In this document: one piece after another, positions 12,186 through 60,994 of the stretch
Layout: each line of letters opens with the position of its first letter
Position numbering within the stretch: the first letter of the stretch is position 1
NCBI RefSeq assembly: GCF_964213995.1
Contig: NW_027590154.1
Span: 1,054,001 to 1,118,000 of the forward strand
Reading direction: 5' to 3'
Source of the DNA: Mustelus asterias
Lineage: Eukaryota
DNA length: 64,000 nt
Program-made: the position numbers and the translations under genes
The notes under the pieces: model-generated
Told to the model about the DNA's origin: nothing
Seen by the model: the letters and a program-made list of their open reading frames with translations, nothing else
Database searches by the model: none

Positions 12186-12258
12186 GTTTCTGTAGTGTAT
12201 TGGTTATCACATTCACCTCACACGCGAAAGGTTCCCAGTTCAAAACCGGGCAGAAACG
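12186..12258 (+). pseudogene. tRNA-Val(CAC), best-preserved copy (probable pseudogene)
   Basis: 9 mismatches to consensus, mostly CpG transitions; acceptor stem still pairs (GTTTCTG/CAGAAAC). Confidence 0.88.
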
Positions 12259-22714: not shown

Positions 22715-25064
22715 AATTCATAAGAACATAAGAAATAGGAGCAGGAGTAGGCCATCTAGCCCCTCGAGCCTGCCCCGCCATTCAATAAGATCATGGCTGA
22801 TCTGACGTGGATCAGTACCACTTACCCGCCTGATCCCCATAACCCTTAATTCCCTTACCGATCAGGAATCCATCCATCCGCGCTTTAAACATATTCAGCG
22901 AGGTAGCCTCCACCACCTCAGTGGGCAGAGAATTCCAGAGATTCACCACCCTCTGGGAGAAGAAGTTCCTCCTCAACTCTGTCTTAAACCAACCCCCCTT
23001 TATTTTGAGGCTGTGTCCTCTAGTTTTAACTTCCTTACTAAGTGGAAAGAATCTCTCCGCCTCCACCCTATCCAGCCCCCGCATTATCTTCTCAGTCTCC
23101 ATAAGTTCCCCCCTCATCCTTCTAAACTCCAACGAGTACAAACCCAATCTCCTCAGCCTCTCCTCATAATCCAAACCCCTCATCTCCGGTATCAACCTGG
23201 TGAACTTTCTCTGCACTCCCTCCAATGCCAATATATCCTTCCTCATATAAGGGGACCAATACTGCACACAGTATTCCAGCTGCGGCCTCACCAATGCCCT
23301 GTACAGGTGCATCAAGACATCCCTGCTTTTATATTCTATGCCCTTCGCAATATAGGCCAACATCCCATTTCCCTTCTTGGTCACCTGTTGTACCTGCAGA
23401 CTGGGCTTTTGCGTCTCATGCACAAGGACCCCCAGGTCCCTTTGCACGGTAGCATGTTTTAGTTTGTTTCCATTGAGATAGTAATCCCATTTGTTATTAT
23501 TTCCTCCAAAGTGTATAACCTCGCATTTCTCAACGTTATACTCCATTTGCCATATCCTCGCCCACTCACTCAGCCTGTCCAAATCTCTCTGCAGATCTTC
23601 TCCGTCCTCCACACGATTCACTTTTCCACTTATCTTTGTGTCGTCTGCAAACTTCGTTACCCTACACTCCGTACCCTCCTCCAGATCATCTATATAAATG
23701 GTAAACAGTTGCGGCCTGAGTACCGATCCCTGCGGCACGCCACTAGTTACCTTCCTCCAACCGGAAAAACACCCATTTATTCCGACTCTTTGCTTCCTGT
23801 CGGATAGCCAGTCCCCAATCCACTTTAACACACTGCCCCCAACTCCGTGTGCCCTAATCTTCTTCAGCAGCCTTTTATGGGGCACCTTATCAAACGCCTT
23901 TTGGAAATCCAAAAACACCGCATCCACCGGTTCTCCTCCATCAACCGCCCTCGTCACATCTTCATAAAAATCCAACATGTTCGTCAAGCACGACTTTCCC
24001 CTCATGAATCCATGCTGCGTCTGATTGATCGAACCATTTCTATCCAGATGCCCTGCTATCTCCTCTTTAATAATGGATTCCAGCATTTTCCCTACTACAG
24101 ACGTTAAGCTGACTGGCCTATAGTTACCCGCCTTTTGTCTCCTTCCTTTTTTAAACAGCGGCGTAACATTAGCCGTTTTCCAATCAACCGGCACTACCCC
24201 AGAATGCAACGAGTTTTGATAAATAATCACTAACGCATCCACTATTACCTCTGACATTTCTTTCAATACCCTGAGATGCATTCCATCCGGACCCGGGGAC
24301 TTGTCCACCTTCAGTCCCATTAGTCTACCCAGCACTGCCTCTCTGGTAACATTAATTGTATTAAGTATTTCTCCTGCTGCCAACCCTCTATCGTTAATAT
24401 TTGGCAAACTATTTGTGTCCTCCACCGTGAAGACCGACACAAAAAACTTATTTAAAGACTCAGCCATATCCTCATTTCCCACTATTAACTCCCCCCTCTC
24501 GTCCTCCAAGGGTCCAACATTCACTCTAGCCACTCTATTCCTTTTTATATATTTATAAAAACTTTTACTATCATTTTTTATATTAATTGCTAGCCTAGCT
24601 TCATAGTCTATCCTTCCTTTCTTTATCGCTTTCTTAGTCTCTCTTTGTTGTTTCTTAAATTTTTCCCAATCACTTGTTTCTCCACTATTTTTGGCCACTC
24701 TGTACGCAGCTGTTTTTATTTTAATACTCTCCTTTATTTCCTTCGTTATCCACGGCTGGTTCTCCCTTTTCTTACAATCCTTGTTTTTTGCTGGAATATA
24801 TTTTTGCTGAGAACTGAAAAGGATCTCCTTAAAAATCCTCCACTGTTCCTCAGCTATCCTACCTGCCAGCCTGCTCTCCCAGTCTACCTTAGCCAATTCA
24901 TCCCTCATCCTATCATATTTCCCTCTGTTCAAACAGAGGACACTGGTTTGAGACCAAACTTTCTCCTCTTCCATCTGAATCAGAAATTCGACCATATTGT
25001 GGTCACTAGACCCAAGAGGGTCCTTCACAATAAGATCCTTAATTCTACCTACCTCGTTACACAA
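22715..25064 (-). mobile_element. CR1 LINE, 5'-truncated, uninterrupted 750-aa ORF2 fragment (22812-25064)
   Basis: Begins at the end of the APE endonuclease (PLGSSDHNMVEF); complete RT (DFQKAFD, GVPQGSVL, KFADD); tail (ttcttatg)n. Confidence 0.97.
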
Positions 25065-25119
25065 TTCATGTTTCTGTCTATGTGAGAAAACATCACGCTG
25101 GTTAGTACTACGCTATACA

Positions 25120-25925: not shown

Positions 25926-26034
25926 CCAGCTCTCAGTAAGCACTGAACTGGACCCAGTCTGCATTCATATTAGTACAAGTGCTGTATCAATAATTGGTGC
26001 ACTCGACACTTTCTCTGTATTACTGTATTACTGC

Positions 26035-26099
26035 ATGGTATTTGTTACCAAATAAACCTGTTGGACTTTAACCTGGTGTTGTGAGACTTCTTACTGTGC
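26035..26099 (+). mobile_element. Mini Penelope-like pLTR fragment with TSD
   Basis: atggtatttgttaccaaataaacctgttggactttaacctggtgttgtgagacttcttactgtg nearly identical to 59233-59296; TTACTGCA repeated at 26028-26035 and 26100-26107. Confidence 0.85.
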
Positions 26100-27656
26100 T
26101 TACTGCACAAAACCCGTCCTTCGTTCATAATACAACAGATCGTATTAGATGGATTGGCTGTGCAAAATTGCCCGTTATTGTCCATAGGGTATGTGGATTC
26201 GTCATGGTAAATGTGTGGGGCTACCGGGGATAGGACAGAGGGGAGGGCCTGGGTGGGATGCAAACTCCGTGAGCCAGATGGTTTTTTGCTGAACTCGAGG
26301 GATTCTATGGTTCTATGTCTAAGAATTATCATATCATACCTTGCTTAGACATTTGAGTGCTTATTTCTTTTAAATATTCCTTTTTCCAATTACCCCCTTT
26401 CGAGAAATGATTTCTTTTAGCAATTTCCCTTCAGTTTTCCAAGTGATAACCTGCAGTCCATCTCTGCCTTCCATGAGTGTATGAAAACACCAGACAGTTC
26501 ATGTATTTCAACTGAAGAACATTTAATATGTAACTATTTATTGACAACCATTCTGCTGTGTGCTCTTGCACACAAAACGATTTCAATCTGACTATTTTGC
26601 TCCCAGCGTTGACTTATCTGTCTTTAAAAATCTGTTGGAAAATGGATAAATCACATCTCGAATGACGAGGAGATTACTGGAAATTGATCTTCTTCGTGTC
26701 TCACTAAAGTTCCTGATTTTCGACTCAATTATGTGCTGATTTGTGAAAATGATGGCGGAAATGACCGTGGGTATATAGCCGACAGGAGATAATTACACCT
26801 GTAATTCTCAAACTTCTTATTCCTATTAATGCAAAGGATTGAAACATCTGCTGTTCTCCAGAGATGGAGCAATATTTCTGTTTAACCGTTACATTCGCCA
26901 ATTCCATGGTAACCATCCTAAATATTTTCTACTGTGTATAGGTTGTACAATCTCGGTAACACGATGAATCAGGATCAGGTATATTATGAGGGTGGCCAGA
27001 CCTTGTGTGATACAAACAGTGATATTGCCTGGTGAACATGGACAGTAGCTGTTCGAGATGGCAGCTCATCATCACTTTGTCAGGGGCAATTAGGGAAGGG
27101 CAACAGATGCGAGTGATGCCCACATCCCATAAATGATTAAACATTATGCAGTAACAACAGAGACAGAATCTAATCTAATATAGACAGATGTGCTGGCGCA
27201 ATGATAACATAAACTGGCCGGGAGAATCATGTGAACTAATGTATGAGATAGATACAATAAGAGAGACAGAACATGATATAACATTTAAATAAACATTTTT
27301 TCCGTGTGATCATTCTAGAAAAAAGTAAATTGTCCAATAATAACTGGCAGGTGTCAAACGTAGCAAAATCAGATACAGGTTCCAATTCACAACTGATTGG
27401 GTAACGGTTTCCAAAAATAATCATAGAGAATTAGAATATTATAATTTGAATGGCCGGCCCCGGTGTTTCACTAACAGAGACAGCTCGGCCCGGAGTCAGA
27501 ATGGGACTTGATATAAGGAAGCAATCTTTTCGAGGGCCCTGCGCAGGTTTCCATGTCATGACGAGTGATGCAGGGATTTGTGTGGTAAACACGGATTGGA
27601 AACCGATGACAGCCGCAAGGGTCACTGACTCCACCTGACTAAGAGCTGTTATTCCC

Positions 27657-33099: not shown

Positions 33100-36000
33100 C
33101 TTTTTATTTCTAAGGCATATAAAATTGCCAGAAGAAGCAACAAGCCTGAGGGTTTGGAACGTTTTATAATTCAACAAAAGAAGACACAATGTGCGAGCGG
33201 GGTAATAGAATATGAAAGTAAAATGGCAGGAAGCAGAGAAACTAATTGTACAAGCTTCTCTGAATATCTGAAGAGACAAAGATTAGTTCAGACAAATTAG
33301 GTAGCTTCCAGTCAGAATCCAGGGAAATTATAATAGGGAACAAAGAAATGTTGGATGAATAGAACACAAAGTTTGACTCCATCTTCACAAAAGGGGACAC
33401 AAATATCCTCCCAGAAATGTTAGGGAACCAAGGGCTGGTTGGCATTGAAGAACACCAGCTTTAGTAGCAAATCATGCTGGGGAAATTAATGAGGTGAAAT
33501 GCTGATAAATCACAAAGGCCTGAGAATCTACATCCCAGAGTATGAATGGAAATGGCCCTGAAAATATTGGGTGCATTGGTGTCATCCTCTAAAATTCTAT
33601 ACACTCTGGATCAGTTCCATAAGACCATAAGACCATAAGACATAGGAGCGGAAGTAAGGCCATTCGGCCCATCGAGTCCACTCCACCATTCAATCATGGT
33701 TGATTTCAACTCCATTTACCCGCTCTCTCCCCATAGCCCTTAATTCCTCGAGAAATCAAGAATTTATCAATTTCTGTCTTGAAGACGCTCAACGTCTCGG
33801 CCTCCACAGCCCTCTGTGGCAATGAATTCCACAGACCAAGTTCCTATAGATTGGAGGGTGACAAATGAAATCCCAACATGTACAAAGGAAGGGAGAGTAA
33901 AAATGTTGAATTACAGCCTGACTTTAGCATCAGTGAAGATGTTGGAGGCTGTTATCAAAGACATGATAGCAAAATATTTGGAAAGCATTAACGGAATTTG
34001 ATGAAGCCAAAATGGGCTTAAGGAAGATATGTAATTCGTAACAAACATACTTGCGTTTTCTGAGGCTGTAAATAATAGAATAGGGAGGGGGAAGGGAACC
34101 AGGCTATGTGGTGCATTTGCACTTTCAGAAGACGTTTGAGACGGTTCCTCGTACAATTCCAGTCCAAAGATGTGCGGGTTAGGTTGATTGGCCAGGTTAA
34201 AAATTGCCCCTTAGAGTCCTGAGATGCGTAGGTTAGCGGGATTAGTGGGTAAATATGTGGGGGTAGGGCCTGGGTGGGATTGTGGTCGGTGCAGACTCGA
34301 TGGGCCGAATGGCCTCCTTCTGCACTGTAGGGTTTCTATATCTATTCTATATTAGGAGGTCAAATTAAAGCACGTGGGATCGGGAATAATGTATTGACAT
34401 TGTTGTAGAATTCGGTGACAGATAAGAAACAGAGAATGGAAATACATGGGTCTTTTTCCGAGTGGCAGTCAGCGAGTGATGGGGTACTTCAGGATCCCGA
34501 CTTATTTTATTTATTTATTAGTCACATGTCGGCTTACGTTAACACTGCAATGAAGTTACTGTGAAAAACCCCGAGTCACCACACTCCAGCGCCTGTTCGG
34601 GTACACTGAGGGAGAGTTTAGCATGGCCAATGTCCCTAAGCTGCACGTCCTTCGGATGGTGGAGGAAACCGGGGCACCCAGAAGAAATCCACGTAAACAC
34701 GGGGAGAACGTGCAGACTCCGTACAGTAAATGACCCAAGCCGGGAACCGAACCCGGTCCCCCCCGGCGCTGTGCCACCGTGGGATCTGGATAAGGAAATC
34801 AAATGTAACATGTCCTAAGCGGCTGGCGATATATAACTGTGAGCTATGAGGAGGGTGCAGTGACTTGTGAGCTGTGAGGAGGATGCAGGGGGGCTTCAAT
34901 GTGATCTGGACAAGTTGTGTGAATGGGTGAACATGTGGCAGCTGCAGTACAACGTGGTTCAATGTACAGTTATATACGTGTGTAAAGCACAAAACAATAT
35001 ATATTTGGAAGTGTGATCTACAAATGAATCTGGGTATCCTTGTACACCAACCAATGAAATCGGAGAGGTATGTGCAGCAAGCAATTAGGAAGGCCTTCGT
35101 TGCAAGAAGATTTGAGTTCGGAATTAGGGAAGTCTTACTGCAGCAATGCTGGGTCTTCATAAGACCACATCTGGTGTAATGCGTGTAGATTTGATCTCCC
35201 TCCCTAAGAAAGGGACTCTGGCGAGTGCAGCTGATACCCGGATTGGTGGGACTGTCCTATAAGGCGAAATTGATTCGACCGGGCCTGTATTCACTTGACT
35301 GACCTGATGAAGGAGCAGCACTCGGAAAGCTCGTGAGTCCAAATAAACATGTTGGACTTTAACCTGGCGTTGCGAGACTTCTTACTGTGTCCACCCTAGT
35401 GCAACGCTGGCATCTCCACCTCATGTATTCACTCGAGTTTAGACGGATGAGAAGAGATCTGATTGAAATACATAAAATTGTGATTGAAACATTCAAAACA
35501 TAACAAATGAGGGCGGTACAGTGGCACAGTGACTAGCACGGCTGCCTCTCATTGCCAGGGACCTGGGTTCAATTCCCACTTTGGGTCACTGTCTGTGCAG
35601 AGACTGCACATTCTCCCCCTATCTGCGTGGGTTTCCTTCGGGTGCTCCATTTTCCTCCCACAGTCAGAAAGACGTGCTGATTAGGTGCATTGGCAATGCT
35701 AAATTTTCCCTCAGCGTGCCTGAACAGGCGCTGGAGAGTGGCCATGGGCCCTTTCACAGTAACTTCATTGCAGTGTATGTCTATTTGTGCATTAATAATA
35801 AATGAAGTTATGAATAATTAAACGAATTCTAACAGGGCTGAGCAGGCGAGGTGAAGGAAGGACGTTTTCGCTGGTTAGGTAGTCTCAAACCAGGGATGCA
35901 GTCTCAAGACATAGGGTAGCCAATTTAGGACAGAAATGAGGAAACATTTCTTCACTTCAGAGGCGAGTGAACATACGGAGTCCTCTAGCACTGACGGCTT

Positions 36001-38210: not shown

Positions 38211-39726
38211 AGGCCCTGTCTCTATATTGCACTCATCTGTGACCTGTCTCTGCTGATGTTAAATTAACTAATCCCTGTTTCGGTTTATATTAAAGAAGAT
38301 TTTGTCTCTGTTCATATTACACTGGACGTACTTTCTGTTTATAATAAACTAGATGCTGTCTCTGTTTATATTACACATCACCATGTCTCTGTTCATATTG
38401 AGATCGACAATGACTCTGCTTTTATTAATGTAGACCTGTCTCTGTACTAAACTGGATGCACTTGACCATGTCCATGTTCATTTTATATTGGGCACGGACT
38501 CAGTTATTACTGCACTGGACAATGTGCAATAATGTGAAAAGTGGCTATGGGAACACGATTCTCTGCATCCTCCTACAGATACAACTCTGACGGATGGAGA
38601 CAAGTGTTGGGAACTGGAAAAGAAGAAGTGATATTTGAAAGCTCATTCTACTGATGCATTGAAAATAGATATCAAACCCTGCGCAGCATACACTGTCGAT
38701 CCAATATTTTCCGTTTCAAGATCCTGCTGAATACAGATGTTTATAGCCCAGCATATTTATGCATTATATTATCTCTCTACCTCACAGAACCGTTGAGTAA
38801 TGTTCAGACAGAGGAATACTATAGTGCAGTAATAACAGTGACCTGGTCTCATGAATTATAGACAGAGTCAGGATCAAATGTCATATAAACAGGGATTGGG
38901 TCTAGTGCATCATAAACTAAGCTCTGGTCAAGCGGAGTATTAACAGAGACAGGATCTATTTTAATCTAAACAGTGGCCTGATGCAGTGAAATAGAAACGA
39001 GGTCGTGCCGAGTGCCTTGTGGGAAGTTAAATGCGAAATACTGGCCTTACCAGAGACACCCACATCCCATTAAATAAATATTTTAAAAATATGAATGACA
39101 TCAACGAATACAAGAAAAACTGAGATGGTGTCGAGTGCAATTTAACTGAATGCAGTTACTTGCGCGATATAAACTGAGACATATCGTGTCAATTACTGAT
39201 ACAGGCCTAAACCGATATTAACTGAGGCAGAGCTTAGCGCATTAGCAGTAATTACTGATACAGAATCTGGACTGACATAAACTGAGACAGAGTCCAGTGT
39301 GTTAGTGGTCATTACTGATGCAGGACCTAGACTGATAAAAACTGAGACAGGATTTAGTGTGTTATTAATGACTAGAGATACGATATTTAGACTGATATAA
39401 ACTCAGAAAGAGTCTAGCGCATTGGGAATAATTACTAATATGTGATCTAGACTGGCATACACTGAGATATGGACAATGCAGCAAATTAGAGGGATCACAT
39501 GATGCAATAATAACAGAGGCAGGGCACAGTGTTGAATAAACAAATACATGCACTTGTGCAGCATTAACTAAAACAGTGTCGACTTTATTAGATCTAATGA
39601 ACCATTAGAGTAATGACAGTGACCGAAACTTGTGTAACGCAAGAAGGATGTTGCTCCAGTATGGGAGTCACAGATAAAGGTTCTGTTGCAGTAGGAATTG
39701 AGACACAGTCTCTTCCCAGATTAAAG

Positions 39727-55020: not shown

Positions 55021-57630
55021 TTGTATCACTTAGTGATAACCACACTGGATTTTTTATTCTTCCCTCGTGTGAGTCTGATCACTAATTATGACAGGAATAT
55101 TTCACACATCAGTTCTCTTTGTTTTAACTTGTCTAGTTGAAGCAATTTAGATCATCAATCAAATTAACATTCAATGGAATACCAGCCTGTTCACAGATAC
55201 TTTATTTATTGTGACATCAGAATTTTCAGAACAAATTCTTAAATAGAATGTATTTATTCATTTAATTAAATCGCATCTGGTGTAATTTATGTTAAAAAGC
55301 TTTCTATTCTTTTTGAACCAACTGTTAATATTCTTAAAATAACCGCTATTTTGAGTTGAAACGAATGAATCAGTGACGGTTTATCTGTTTTTGCTGCCAT
55401 GAACATTTCATTGTAAACAGTGACGTGCTTATGTAAATAAACACAGAAATAGAAATCCCAGATTAGATTGTTGACTGACGAAAACACAACAAATATTTCC
55501 CCACCAACACAGCACAGAAATAGAGACAAACATGCAAATTGATCAACGGATTCCAGAAATGATTGTTTTTATACATTAGTTATTCATCAATTATATGAAG
55601 AAAAAAAATCATGACAATATCTATGTTCAGAATTAGCAAAGAATCCCTTTGATCCCGAAATGTGATAACACGGCAAATGTGTTCGTGGAAATTCCCTGTG
55701 TTTCATCTCTCTCTCTCTGTCTTTCTCCTTCTGGTTCTGTGTCTTGTCTCTTCACGATAGGTCATCGTCTTCCCTCCACAATCTGAATTCAATGTTGCCC
55801 AATGTATTCTCTCAGCCGGAGTTGTAAGGAATGCAACGCAATGAATTGGAATCCATGAGGGAGATTTACTCTAAAAGATCTCTTGAGCATCTATGATTTT
55901 GGGATATTTTATACATTTTCCTCTGTATCTAACCTGTATTGTACCTCGTAACAAGGATTCGATGTGGCAGTACCAAAGAGATTTTCCCTGTATTTATCCC
56001 TGCCCTTGGACTGTTTGACTGGACAGTGTAGAGGAATATTTAACCTGCATCTAAACTCACGTACCTTCCCTTTGAATATTTGATATTACTTGTAAAGGGA
56101 GATTTAATCCGGATCTAATCTCTGCTGTACCTGACCTGGGTGTATTTTATGGGACTGTGTCGAGGGATCTTCCCCCTCTACCGAACACCAATTCAAACTT
56201 GCCTCCCGATTCTCTGAAGGAAAAATGCAGAAGTGGTTTTACCTAGAAGAGAGTCCCTGGTCTCTCTGCCTTCATTGTGTTTGAGCAGACTTTGTAGAGG
56301 GAGTTTCACTCTGTTTCTAGACAGTCTCCCTTTTCCAGGGATGTTTTATTTTGATAGGGAGAGGGAGGTTCACTTTGTATCTAAATCATGCTATTCCTGA
56401 CTTGGGAGTGTTAAATTTGGCAATGCATGGGGGAACTTTACTGTTAACCCCATATTACTCCTGTCCTGTGATTGTTTGATGGGGCAGTAGGCCGTCTCTC
56501 CAAATTTCATGGAGATTGAACCAGTCTCTTTATTAGACAGTCAGTTTACCCCGTGTCAGCTTCTATTATATAAGGTCATGCCTCGGTTTATGTTGCACTC
56601 GACCCTATCTCTTCACATATTAAACGAGATGCTTTCTCTGATTATACTAAATTAGACCTTGTCCCTGTTTATATTATGCATCAACATGTTTCGGTTTATA
56701 TCAAACTAGACGCTGTATCGGTTTGTATTAATTTAGACCTGTCTGTTTGTATTAAACTAGATGGAGTCTTATTTCTGCACTTGACCCTATCCACGTTTAT
56801 ATTGCATTGGACGTGGTCTCAGTTCTTACTGCACTGGACAATGCCAGTAATGAGGAAAGTGTTTAGGGGGACACAATTCTCTGCATCCTCTTAAACAAGG
56901 AAAAGAAGCAGTGTTATCTGAAATCTACTTCTGCTGACTGCATTGAAAATGGTTACTAAGACCTGTATAGCATGCACTGTCAACACAGAACAAAGAACAA
57001 GAAAATTACTGCAGAGGAACAGGCCCTTCGGCACTGGAAGCCCGCACCGACCAAATACTGTCGATCCAATACTGCCTGTTTCAGAATCCTGCCAGAGACC
57101 ACTGTTTTTCATCCAACATAATATCTCTTCTTCTCGTAGAACCGCGGAGAAATGCAGACATCATTCAAATAGAGGCAACATTAAGCACAGGCATAACACT
57201 AACACAGTCTAGTGAAATATGTACAGGGTCAGGATCAAATATTACTGAACCAGAGAGTGTGGCTATAAACTGATTTCTAGTCTAGCAGTGTATTAACAGA
57301 GACAGACTCTAATTTAACATAAACTGGGTCCTGATCCAGCAAAATAGAAATGGGTTTCTTTCCGAGTGCCATGTGGGGATGGTCAAAGGCCAAATGCTGA
57401 TCTTTTCAGTGACACCCACATCCCATGAAACAAACATTACAAATATATATGACAATGTCGAGGAAAATAAAACTGAGACAGTGTCTAGTGCAGTTTTACT
57501 GGACATAGGAGCTTATGCATATAAACTGAGACAGAGCCCAGTAATTAATGATACAGGACCTAAATTTCTTTAGAGTGAGACGGAGTCAAGTGCATTAGTA
57601 ATAATTACTAATAGATACAGGACAGTGACA

Positions 57631-58170
57631 GATGTAAACTGAGACAGAGTCCAGTGTATTAGTAATGATTACTGATACAGCACCTAGACTGATGTAAACT
57701 GAGACAGAGTCCAGTGTATTAGTAATGATTACTAATACAGCACCTAGACTGATGTAAACTGAGACAGAGTCCAGTGTATTAGTAATGATTACTAATACAG
57801 CACCTAGACTGATGTAAACTGAGACAGAGTCCAGTGTATTAGTAATGATTACTGATACAGCACCTAGACTGATGTAAACTGAGACAGAGTCCAGTGTATT
57901 AGTAATGATTACTGATACAGTACCTAGACTGATGTAAACTGAGACAGAGTCCAGTGTATTAGTAATGATTACTGATACAGCACCTAGACTGATGTAAACT
58001 GAGACAGAGTCCAGTGTATTAGTAATGATTACTGATACAGCACCTAGACTGATGTAAACTGAGACAGAGTCCAGTGTATTAGTAATGATTACTAATACAG
58101 CACCTAGACTGATGTAAACTGAGACAGAGTCCAGTGTATTAGTAATGATTACTGATACAGCACCCAGACT
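57631..58170 (+). repeat. 60-bp minisatellite, 9 near-identical units plus diverged flanking units
   Basis: Unit gatgtaaactgagacagagtccagtgtattagtaatgattact(g/a)atacagcacctagact. Confidence 0.98.
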
Positions 58171-58633
58171 GATGTAAACTGAGACAGAGCCCAGTTTATT
58201 TGTAATAATTACTGGTACAGGGCCTAGACTGATACACACTGAGATACGGACAATGCAGCAATTAGGAGGTATTGCAAAATGCAATTATAGCTCAGACGTG
58301 ATATAGTCTTAAATAAATAAATACATGGACTGGTGCAGCATTAACGCAAACAGGATCGAGTTTCTCAAAATCTAATGAACTATTAGCATAATAACTGTGA
58401 CAGAACCATGTGTCATGCATGAAGCAGTTGCTCCAGTTTAGTATGCAGTGGCTAATGTTCTGAGGCAGTAAGAATCGAGACACGGCCTCTTGTCAGATCA
58501 GCAGAAGCATGGCTCAGTACAGCCATAACTTAGAAATTATAATATAAACAGGGCCTGTGTCTCATATACGAACACCTGATATTGAGCCAAGCGCAGGAAA
58601 TAGCTTAGACATGACCTCCTGGAATATGATCCA

Positions 58634-59326
58634 CGTAAGAAGTCTCACAACACCAGGTTAAAGTCCAACACGTTTATTTGGTAGCAAATACCATAAGCTT
58701 TCGGAGCACTGCTCCTTCGTCGGATGGAGTGGAAATGTGCTCTCAAACAGTGCACAGACACAGAAATCACGTTACAGAATACTAATTAGAATTTGGCTAT
58801 CAGTTTCTGCTCAGCGACTCTGCGCTGTCGTGTGTCGTGAAGGCCGCCTTGGAGAACGCTTACCTGAAGATCCAAGGCTGAATGCCCGTGACTGCTGAAG
58901 TGCTCCCCCACAGGAAGAAACTGATAGCCAAATTCTGTACACATGAGGACGGCCTAAACCGGGATGTTGGATTTATGTCACACTATCAGTAACCCCCATA
59001 GCTTGCCTCCTGGGCTTGCAGAATCTCACGAGCTGTTCTGTCTGGAGACAATACACAACTCTTTAACCTGTGTTTAATGCTCCCTCCACCACATTGCCTG
59101 TACCTTTAAGACCTGGCTGGCTTTAGGGATTCGCATTCTAATTAGTATTCTGTAACTTGATTTCTGTGTCTGTGCACTGTTTGAGAGCAAATTTCCCCTC
59201 CATCTGACGAAGGAGCAGTGCTCCGAAAGCTTATGGTATTTTCTACCAAATAAACCTGTTGGACTTTAACCTGGTGTTGTGAGACTTCTTACTGTGTTCA
59301 CCCCAGTCCAACGCCGGCATCTCCAC
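58634..59326 (+). mobile_element. Penelope-like element 3' end with inverted 5' portion; GIY-YIG C-terminus and hammerhead ribozyme
   Basis: 158-bp inverted arms 58635-58792/59135-59292; minus strand LPVGEHFSSHGHSALDLQVSVLQGGLHDTRQRRVAEQKLIAK continues on plus as KLIAKFCTHEDGLNRDVGFMSHYQ*; TSD ATATGATCCA at 58624-58633 and 59327-59336. Confidence 0.92.
59200..59236 (+). ncRNA. Minimal type I hammerhead ribozyme motif
   Basis: CCAT-CTGACGA-A-GGAGC(AGT)GCTCC-GAAA-GC-TT^ATGG: helix I CCAT/ATGG, intact core, helix II, palindromic AAGCTT in place of helix III. Confidence 0.82.
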
Positions 59327-60994
59327 ATATGATCCAGGCACAGCCTACTGTAATACAGACAGAGGCAGAAGCTAGCTGAATATAGGTAGAGATATGGTAT
59401 GTTTAAAATTGTTGTGATTTTGATGTCACTGGGAAAGTCAGCTTTTGTTGCCAAACCATGAATTCCTTTGAGAATGTGGTGGCAAGCTTTGGGAAGCTGG
59501 TGGGTGGGGTGTTCTTCGAGTCAGCTACTTTCTCCAGAATGACATTGAGCTTTTGAGTGGCACAAGTCAGGCAAGTAGAGAATATTCAATCATCTGTGTC
59601 GGCACAGACTTGGTGGGCCGAAGGGCCTGTTCCCGTGCTTTACTGTTCTGTGATATTTGTTCACACTCCAGCCTTTTGCCTTGTAGATGATGGATAGGAG
59701 TTTGGAATTCAGGAGGTGCGTTGTTCACAACAGAACTCCGAGCGTCTGACCTGCTCCTGTGGCCACATGATTTAAACGTCTGTCTCCGTTCAGATTTTCA
59801 CGAATTATAATTCATAGGATGTTGATAGTGGACGAATTCAGCGATGGGTAATGCCATTTAATGTCATGGGGAGTGGTTTGGAATCTCCCTCATTGGAGAC
59901 TGTCATTGCTTGCCACTTGTTGTGCATTAATGTTCCTTGTCACTCGTTAGCCAAACACTAAATGTTTTCGAAGTCTTACTGCATATGGACACAGACTGTT
60001 TCAGTGTCTGAGGAGCCGCGACTGGTGCTGAACTATGTGCAATCATCAGTGAAAATCCCACTTCTGAAATTTGATGAAGGCTGAAGCTTGGGGCTAGGTC
60101 ACCAACCTGAAGAATTCCTGCAGCAATGCGTGTGACTGGCATGATTGGCCATCAACAATCATCTTCCTTTGTGCTCAGCATGACTCAGGCAGTGGACTCT
60201 GTTCCCCCTGATTCCCATTGACTGCAGTTTCGCTCGGGCTCCTTGATGCCACAAACGGTCAGACGCTGCGTCCATGACAAGGGCAGGCACTCTCTATTCA
60301 CCTTTTTAATTTATTTTTTAAAATCCATATTTGGGCTCTTTCCAAATCATTTCTGGAATCGAGTGCTCCTTGCGGGACCCAAATTGAGCATCTTGGTGTG
60401 TGTGTGTGTTGTGTGAAATACATCGTGTTTGATACAAATTAATTCCACAATGATCACGTGCATCCTTCCATTTACACTACATGACGGACACACAATAAAC
60501 ACATCCAATTCAGATTGGCTTCCTTTACATATGTCACCTTTTCTGATGATTGAGGAGGCCAATTTTTGAAAAGTTAGTTCGGCCACAAGTGCTGCCCATT
60601 AAGCTACTATTCGTCATTGTGTGTTATTGTTTTTGTATCATGAATGGATATTAGGAGCTTTGGTGTAGAACCAGTTATCACCAAAATCCTGTATTCCTTG
60701 CCCTGCTGACGGTGGTGAATGTCTTAGCGAGATTGACCGAAGTACGTTAAGATATGGACATATATGGAACATGGAGAAGTTGTTGGCTGGAGTAAATCTT
60801 CCAATACAATCACTAAACTGCACATCAGATATACCCGGTCTGCAAGCAGATGATGTATTTCAAGTGTGACCCCAGCAAAGAGCTTTCCCGTGATGTTATG
60901 ACTGAGATATGCCTGTAGTTGTAACAGTCTCTTCCATCGGTTTAGTTTGCAAAAAGTGTGATAAATTTGAATCATGCATGTCTTATGGAATGAT

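Follow-up and report, generated by a model that had tools for sequence, protein, structure and literature searches.

Minimal hammerhead ribozymes are known from the Penelope-like elements (PLEs) of metazoans, where they are described as type I motifs with a short helix I, an unpaired base before stem II and a palindromic helix III, which are located in the pLTR and occur as many dispersed single copies (PMC4209133). According to the same source, their in vitro activity is low and in vivo evidence is absent. For the Poseidon element of Anolis (PAc), it has been reported that reverse transcription is primed internally at two tail-defining sites with the hammerhead just upstream of them, that both strands of AT-rich targets are nicked and extended, and that the uncut RNA is the main template (PMC11167929). 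The PAc ribozyme cut in vitro only in the presence of protein, and none of the Anolis RNA-seq reads presented there had its start or end at the cut site (PMC11167929). Insertions of canonical endonuclease-bearing (EN+) PLEs are characterized by an inverted 5'-truncated arm, a one-sided tail, target site duplications (TSDs) and palindromic joints, and their pLTR carries a TATA/Inr-like promoter (PMC3846280; bioRxiv 10.1101/2021.04.23.441226), whereby the function of the hammerhead in EN+ PLEs has been called unclear (bioRxiv 10.1101/2021.04.23.441226). Whether the minimal hammerheads of animal PLEs cut in vivo, and for what purpose, is left open in these accounts (PMC4209133; PMC11167929; bioRxiv 10.1101/2021.04.23.441226). 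Among other retroelements, R2 elements with HDV-like ribozymes set a precedent for 5' junctions that are determined by a ribozyme, since the cut position sets the genomic 5' junctions, with variable joints via microhomology, and the complete productive template begins at this cut (PMC3774820). RtcB-made U6/LINE-1 chimeras arise from a cellular RNA with a fixed 3' end, which is joined to retroelement RNA and then retrotransposed, and they need a 5'-OH (PMC6789731). Non-LTR retrozymes are described as non-coding, PLE-related and hammerhead-linked (bioRxiv 10.64898/2026.07.22.740005). The hammerheads of PLEs, their inverted arms and tails and the internal priming have therefore already been published; no publication in which the ends of PLE insertions are mapped relative to the cut of the hammerhead was found in a literature search of main texts available without subscription.

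Here we describe a 69-base insert at positions 26035–26103 (+) of a 64,000-nucleotide stretch of the Mustelus asterias genome, referred to as the window, which represents a solo, short-ended copy of PLE subfamily A1 and runs from the first base after the predicted hammerhead cut (+1) to a short 3' end without a tail. The insert is a target-duplicated, 5'-truncated EN+ PLE stub that was probably copied from an RNA already cut by the hammerhead. The hammerheads of its family share the type I architecture, the pLTR location and the dispersed single-copy distribution of those in PMC4209133, whereby the difference is that the genome here offers a countable surplus of 5' ends at the predicted cut. 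The presumed priming from two tail-defining internal sites, the nicking and extension of both strands, the AT-rich targets, the uncut main template and a hammerhead that lies a short distance 5' of the presumed priming sites are as in Anolis PAc, but the ORF, which in PAc starts inside the ribozyme (PMC11167929), begins with an ATG 97 nt downstream of the predicted cut. The insertion structures and the TATA/Inr-like promoter likewise agree with the canonical EN+ PLEs, in whose descriptions 5' ends are not mapped to the ribozyme cut, unlike here (PMC3846280; bioRxiv 10.1101/2021.04.23.441226). With R2, the element shares the putative setting of genomic 5' junctions by the cut position and the variable microhomology joints, whereas the products here are rare dead stubs and both the ribozyme and the retroelement class are different (PMC3774820). 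The insert shares its non-coding nature, its PLE relationship and its link to a hammerhead with the non-LTR retrozymes; the assignment as a retrozyme was ruled out because retrozymes consist of tandem units that each contain a ribozyme, and the focal stub is single and has lost the ribozyme (bioRxiv 10.64898/2026.07.22.740005).

Positions 26035–26098 are identical in 62 of 64 bases to the pLTR at 59233–59296, and the local alignment begins at the A of ATGG. On both sides the insert is flanked by the duplicated target sequence TTACTGCA, with the left copy at 26028–26035 (+) and the right copy at 26100–26107 (+). The region 25926–26230 has at least 38 paralogues elsewhere and the window lies inside a large segmental duplication, so that paralogous empty sites were available for comparison. 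Twenty of these loci were fetched, two of which are filled (this window and one locus on contig C127), whereas all 18 empty loci carry one TTACTGCA and no insert. The focal insertion and its TSD are real. Since the A at 26035 is present in the empty sites and is also element +1, the focal 5' end is +1 or +2. The first 4 nt of the right TSD copy, TTAC, are element sequence as well (GTGCTTAC in many family copies), so that the 3' boundary is ambiguous by 4 nt. An extra 8-nt tandem duplication of the target is located beside the 5' junction (26016–26023, +) and occurs in 2/2 filled copies but in 0/18 empty paralogues; thus the 5' joint involved either filler from repair synthesis or later slippage. 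The target duplication might also be 12 bp long (26024–26035) with a right copy that is partly element-derived, and 12 bp is the modal TSD length of the family. The sequence-only reading had postulated an insert between duplications that starts exactly at the predicted cut and shares its first A with the TSD. The duplications and the one-base ambiguity are borne out by the empty sites, and the alignment does open at ATGG, but the start is fixed only to +1 or +2, and the clean TSD-bounded insert is blurred by the element-derived TTAC and the additional duplication on the left. In itself the single insert is ordinary and constitutes weak evidence; it is the family-wide counts that carry the cleavage claim.

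The hammerhead motif was found in a sister pLTR at 59200–59236 (+), where stem I (CCAT/ATGG), the core CTGACGA, stem II (GGAGC/GCTCC) and the segment GAAA-GC-TT, with the palindromic helix III (AGCT), together provide the CUGANGA and GAAA core, stem II and the NUH triplet of a minimal type I hammerhead with a predicted cut between 59232 and 59233. The surrounding region 59180–59330 has three identical copies elsewhere in the genome. The sister insertion (58635–59328, +) consists of a short-ended inverted arm (58635–58792), element fragments and the direct pLTR with a long tail; its inverted repeat is 158 nt long and 96% complementary, and both arms read through the cut site. Another copy in the window, a diverged C-type-related pLTR with a hammerhead core (35304–35419, +; 83% identity over 123 nt to 59204–59326), also reads through its own cut site. 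An Rfam search over the 64-kb window gave no hammerhead match, and the hammerhead call therefore rests on pattern and covariation. The core pattern is matched by 173 read-through copies, in which pair 1 of stem I is Watson-Crick in 91% (T-A 91, C-G 67), compared to 50% (maximum 61%) in a shuffled control, whereby the copies are related sequences and few independent events stand behind the T-A/C-G swap. The register with the cut before ATGG/GTG pairs in 93% of the copies, compared to 6–34% for shifts of -2 to +2, and stem I thus closes, with covariation at pair 1, at the predicted cut. In the fold prediction, the hammerhead shape of the monomer has -9.6 kcal/mol at a minimum free energy (MFE) of -10.7 kcal/mol, and the modelled active dimer has -18.1 kcal/mol at a cofold MFE of -33.0 kcal/mol, so that this dimer is not favoured over alternatives; the wider fold around the motif has a z of -1.26. 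These modelled energies would be in line with the low unaided hammerhead activity that has been reported. The subfamilies differ at the cut, with GCTT/ATGG in A1, GCTA/ATGG in A2, GCTA/GTGG in B1, GCTT/GTGTGG in B2 and GCTC/GTGA in C, and a CUU triplet, as in A1 and B2, is a poor hammerhead substrate. An AAGCTT palindrome sits directly 5' of the cut, and just 3' of it begins a hairpin (TGGTA...TACCA in A and GTGGC...GCTAC in B), which is absent in C.

A 30-base piece of the focal insert occurs 72,723 times as an exact match in the 3.68-Gb genome. A 410-aa frame upstream of a sister pLTR at another locus shows similarity to RVT_1 (E 5e-6) and GIY-YIG (E 4e-4), both just short of the Pfam cut-offs, with the GIY-YIG endonuclease domain C-terminal to the reverse transcriptase (RT) in the linked ORF. 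Since longer copies run into this RT and GIY-YIG frame, the element belongs to the EN+ PLEs, and the pLTR with inverted 5' arm, the one-sided tail and the TSD that define EN+ insertions were found in its family, with the TSD confirmed at the focal insert by the empty sites. The family copies have two kinds of 3' ends, a short one at about +62 to +69 and a long one at about +95, and 306 of 340 inverted pairs among the fetched loci (90%) combine one long with one short arm, which fits priming from both nicked strands. A TSD of at least 7 bp accompanies 256 of 319 inverted pairs, compared to 17 in shuffled controls, with a mode of 12–13 bp and common lengths of 12–14 bp. At six loci, the junctions contain stuttered repeats of the first 8–20 nt after +1, which suggests repeated re-priming during end-joining.

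For the genome-wide count of 5' ends per base, a copy was considered only if none of its three upstream bases agreed with the element, and five positions were covered in subfamily A and two in B2. In A, the raw counts were 54 at -3, 176 at -1, 238 at +1, 63 at +2 and 51 at +3, which corresponds, after correction for the filter pass rate, to 133, 403, 950, 391 and 219 out of 40,596 anchors, whereby about 263 of the corrected -1 ends are expected leakage from +1. Accordingly, +1 exceeds -3 by a factor of 7.1 and +3 by a factor of 4.3 and accounts for ~2.3% of the copies. The correction assumes random flanks and is rough, since most +1 flanks are an inverted arm: in 25/28, 24/25 and 30/40 cases (79/93 together), the +1 copy forms one arm of an inverted insertion of the ordinary kind, the last sample having been picked without palindromic joints. 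Palindromic joints, which are ambiguous between +1 and +3, make up about 42 of 100 among the A +1 matches listed when counted by hand (41 entered the calculation), and dropping them lowers the +1/-3 ratio of A to ~4. In B2, 1148 ends at +1 compare with 125 at -3 under equal filters (9.2-fold), which amounts to ~5.7% of 49,966 anchors. In C, 99 ends at +1 compare with 38 at -3 (~3.8-fold after correction), whereby ~35 of these +1 ends fall on joints with stem-I microhomology and several more belong to mutated read-through or deleted copies. The sharp excess in A1 and B2 was what the sequence-only reading had asked of a histogram of family 5' ends at the predicted scissile bond, and it is well supported as the putative footprint of ribozyme cleavage in these two subfamilies.

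The fetched loci agree with these counts. After exclusion of four read-through or deleted copies and six unassigned ones from 96 in A, and of 4 and 14, respectively, from 77 in B, the A1 sample (n = 62) had 13 ends at +1, 10 at +2, 2 at +3 and 16 over -1 to -6 together, and the B2 sample (n = 59) had 11 at +1, 12 at +2, 8 at +3, 3 each at -1 and -2, none at -3 and 4 at -4; the A2 sample (n = 24) showed no peak (3 each at +1, +2 and -2). Measured from the 3' anchor that both subfamilies share, the cut of B2 is 2 nt more distant than that of A, and the peak shifts along with it, whereby at the same anchor distance 23 of 59 B2 copies end but only 4 of 62 A1 copies (Fisher p 2e-5). The +1 peak thus tracks the ribozyme and not the distance from the 3' end. 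Solo copies, as called naively, end at +1 in 10 of 31 cases, compared to 6 over -1 to -6. A naive +1 share of 28/100 counted by hand still contained A2 copies, which have an A at -1, and was corrected by these subfamily-aware samples. The predicted cut site is read through by most copies: of 154 copies taken without selection, five have their end at -1 to +2, 38 at -45 to -26 and 27 within the 75-base stretch from -120 to -46. This histogram was made with 97 references, since one reference per subfamily exaggerated the pile at the front edge, and a DNA search of the genome returned near-complete copies alone and gave no basis for a 5'-end histogram. Ends are also frequent from +4 onward. In the upstream control window from -16 to -6, which gave 277 matches with total anchors uncounted, no evident single peak was seen by eye; the downstream window from +13 to +23 was set aside as a control because small deletions dominate there. 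Background 5' ends amount to ~0.3–0.5% of copies per base, so that ~70% of the A ends at +1/+2 are excess and ~30% background, and from this excess the chance that the focal copy is a cleavage product can roughly be put at ~70%.

A second accumulation of ends lies at -35, where 1,543 copies pass the 5'-end filter. Among the matches listed, a G precedes this end of B/C copies in 88 of 100, compared to 29% expected; outside the GTG class this is the case in about 47 of 59 by hand count (45 of 57 in the calculation) and at true solo-class loci in 6 of 7, whereby some of the G's have a template in the inverted arm as well. In front of +1, no excess of a cap-like G was found in A (2/28), and in B2 the excess is slight (39/100 among the matches listed, p 0.05), with 31% expected. 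A TATA-like motif is present in 33 of 47 B/C copies, nearly all of them at -65 to -70, which is ~30 nt upstream of -35, and in 0 of 72 copies of the subfamily A pLTR. In L1 insertions, an untemplated G has been read as a copied cap (PMC9341517). The front-edge pile at -35 is therefore likely to mark a capped transcription start, which would lie inside stem I of the hammerhead, and since the G excess occurs at -35 but not at +1, the junctions appear to record RNA ends, with +1 looking uncapped.

At three loci on three chromosomes, a fragment of the 18S rRNA with one fixed end base is bluntly joined to +1. Since the rDNA continues with G and the element opens with A at all three, there is no microhomology at these joints, and since the loci are split between A1 and A2, at least two events are required. 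At one locus the joint is present in either inverted arm, which hints at a chimera formed at the RNA level, and another locus is solo inside its TSD. In a search from the 18S side, in which the element was not required, both element-joined loci were again at +1 (among 100 of 160 matches listed, with all large chromosomes included). At two or three loci, the 3' end of a CR1-like LINE is joined to the same 18S end or to one that is 1–2 nt further; the fragment is thus a general partner and not specific to the PLE. A recurrent rRNA break point has been captured by several retroelements. When 40 additional +1 loci were compared with Rfam, the 18S locus was the only one with an RNA partner. At three other loci the element's own ORF-start region stands in front of +1 in circular permutation, two of them ending at the same base with an extra G, as expected from circular RNA or template jumping. 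The joining of a cellular RNA with a fixed 3' end to retroelement RNA before retrotransposition is like that in RtcB-made U6/LINE-1 chimeras, and a blunt, microhomology-free joint at a fixed donor end is shared with RtcB-type chimeric retrocopies at 3/3 18S loci; unlike in U6/LINE-1, the cellular part comes from 18S rRNA, and the element always enters the joint with the base that follows the predicted ribozyme cut (PMC6789731). By this analogy the 18S/+1 chimeras may have arisen by ligation, with template jumping as the alternative.

It could be argued that the +1 peak reflects RT stalling or junction microhomology at the hairpin, the AAGCTT palindrome or inverted-arm AT/TGG/G, without any cut of the RNA. 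Most +1 copies are indeed inverted-arm joints, ~42% of the A +1 matches are palindromic, joints recur at other palindromes of the region, and the presence of the hairpin in A and B and its absence in C, which has the weakest peak, keep this explanation alive. However, the B2 peak has its edge 2 nt before the hairpin begins and follows the hammerhead, the strict filters shut out the stem-I joint CAG (A, B2) and the CAA joint (A), solos peak as well, and the blunt 18S joins sit exactly at +1, so that we consider such an origin of the peak improbable. The chance is somewhat greater, if still low, that the family peak is real and the focal insert itself an ordinary 5' truncation that fell on +1 or +2 by accident: the background share of +1/+2 ends and the focal joint with its 1-nt microhomology and 8-nt filler would allow for it, but most of these ends exceed the background, and other +1 joints, too, often contain fillers or stutters.

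If +1 were instead a second transcription start or the product of a protein nuclease cutting at U/A or U/G, this would agree with the pyrimidine/purine step at +1, the missing TATA-like box in A and the slight G excess in B2; it is even less probable in view of the strong G excess that is found at -35 and missing at +1, and because +1 is the one register set by the stem-I covariation. The sequence-only reading had also proposed a lineage of ribozyme-defined micro-retroposons, i.e., that the stubs propagate themselves like SINEs or retrozymes. Several solo, TSD-flanked copies of 60–100 bp do begin at +1, and by extrapolation there are probably hundreds of them genome-wide. But the copies carry the diagnostic bases of their parent subfamilies (A1, A2, B2) and varied fillers, have no promoter, ribozyme or ORF start, form no tandem arrays in the loci seen, and end 3' at the ordinary short or long start points of the element, and most +1 copies are inverted arms. 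In addition, for the Anolis element it is described that the RNA must contain the initial 172 nt of its ORF (PMC11167929). This proposal is not supported and is very unlikely. The in vivo activity of the ribozyme that had been claimed along with it is favoured by the 5'-end excess, the shift between subfamilies, the blunt 18S joins and the lack of a cap-like G, with the weak or missing peaks of C and A2 against it.

Overall, ribozyme cutting in the germ line has likely left a genomic record in the focal stub and in a few percent of the other family copies. In such a course of events, pLTR transcripts would start near -35 and be capped, as suggested by the end peak, the TATA-like box of B and C at about -67 and the G excess. 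The hammerhead, which fills the first ~37 nt, would then cut off the capped leader and leave a 5'-OH at +1, a cleavage suggested by geometry and covariation and probably carried out as a dimer or with the help of a protein. The element protein would nick both strands of an AT-rich target ~12 bp apart, and priming would take place at two internal RNA sites at about +62 to +69 and +95; for the nicking and this presumed twin priming, the long/short arm pairs, the TSDs and the in vitro precedent speak (PMC11167929). If the template had been cut, synthesis would stop at its end, +1, after a mere 60–100 nt, and a solo stub or an inverted pair would become fixed by end-joining that involves microhomology and filler. 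Some cut RNAs were likely first joined to other RNA ends, such as the 18S fragment or the element's own downstream part. The stubs would be dead by-products of a minor dead-end route (~2–6% of copies), with uncut RNA as the main template. As a more tentative thought, which we hold to be possible rather than probable, the junctions might present a fossil map of RNA ends in the germ line, with a capped start at -35 and an uncapped end at +1 that can be ligated, whereby the hammerhead would act as an in vivo decapping switch that sheds a 35-nt leader and its 5'-OH product would be joined by RtcB-type ligation to rRNA fragments or the element's own tail before retrotransposition.

With tens of thousands of copies in one genome, the footprint of the cut becomes countable and a rate per subfamily can be given. 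Rates of ~6% in B2, ~2% in A and little in C predict an order of ribozyme activity that can be assayed, and the cap-like G at -35 only, together with the blunt 18S joins, suggests an end chemistry and a role, namely the removal of a capped leader. The same counting is applicable to any genome that is rich in PLEs. Apart from the PLE copies, the window contains two tRNA genes or pseudogenes according to Rfam (187–259, -; 12186–12258, +), a 60-bp tandem array at 57563–58282 with a related stretch at 39206–39505, and an open frame of 766 codons at 22812–25112 (-), which we take to be the reverse transcriptase of a CR1-like LINE.
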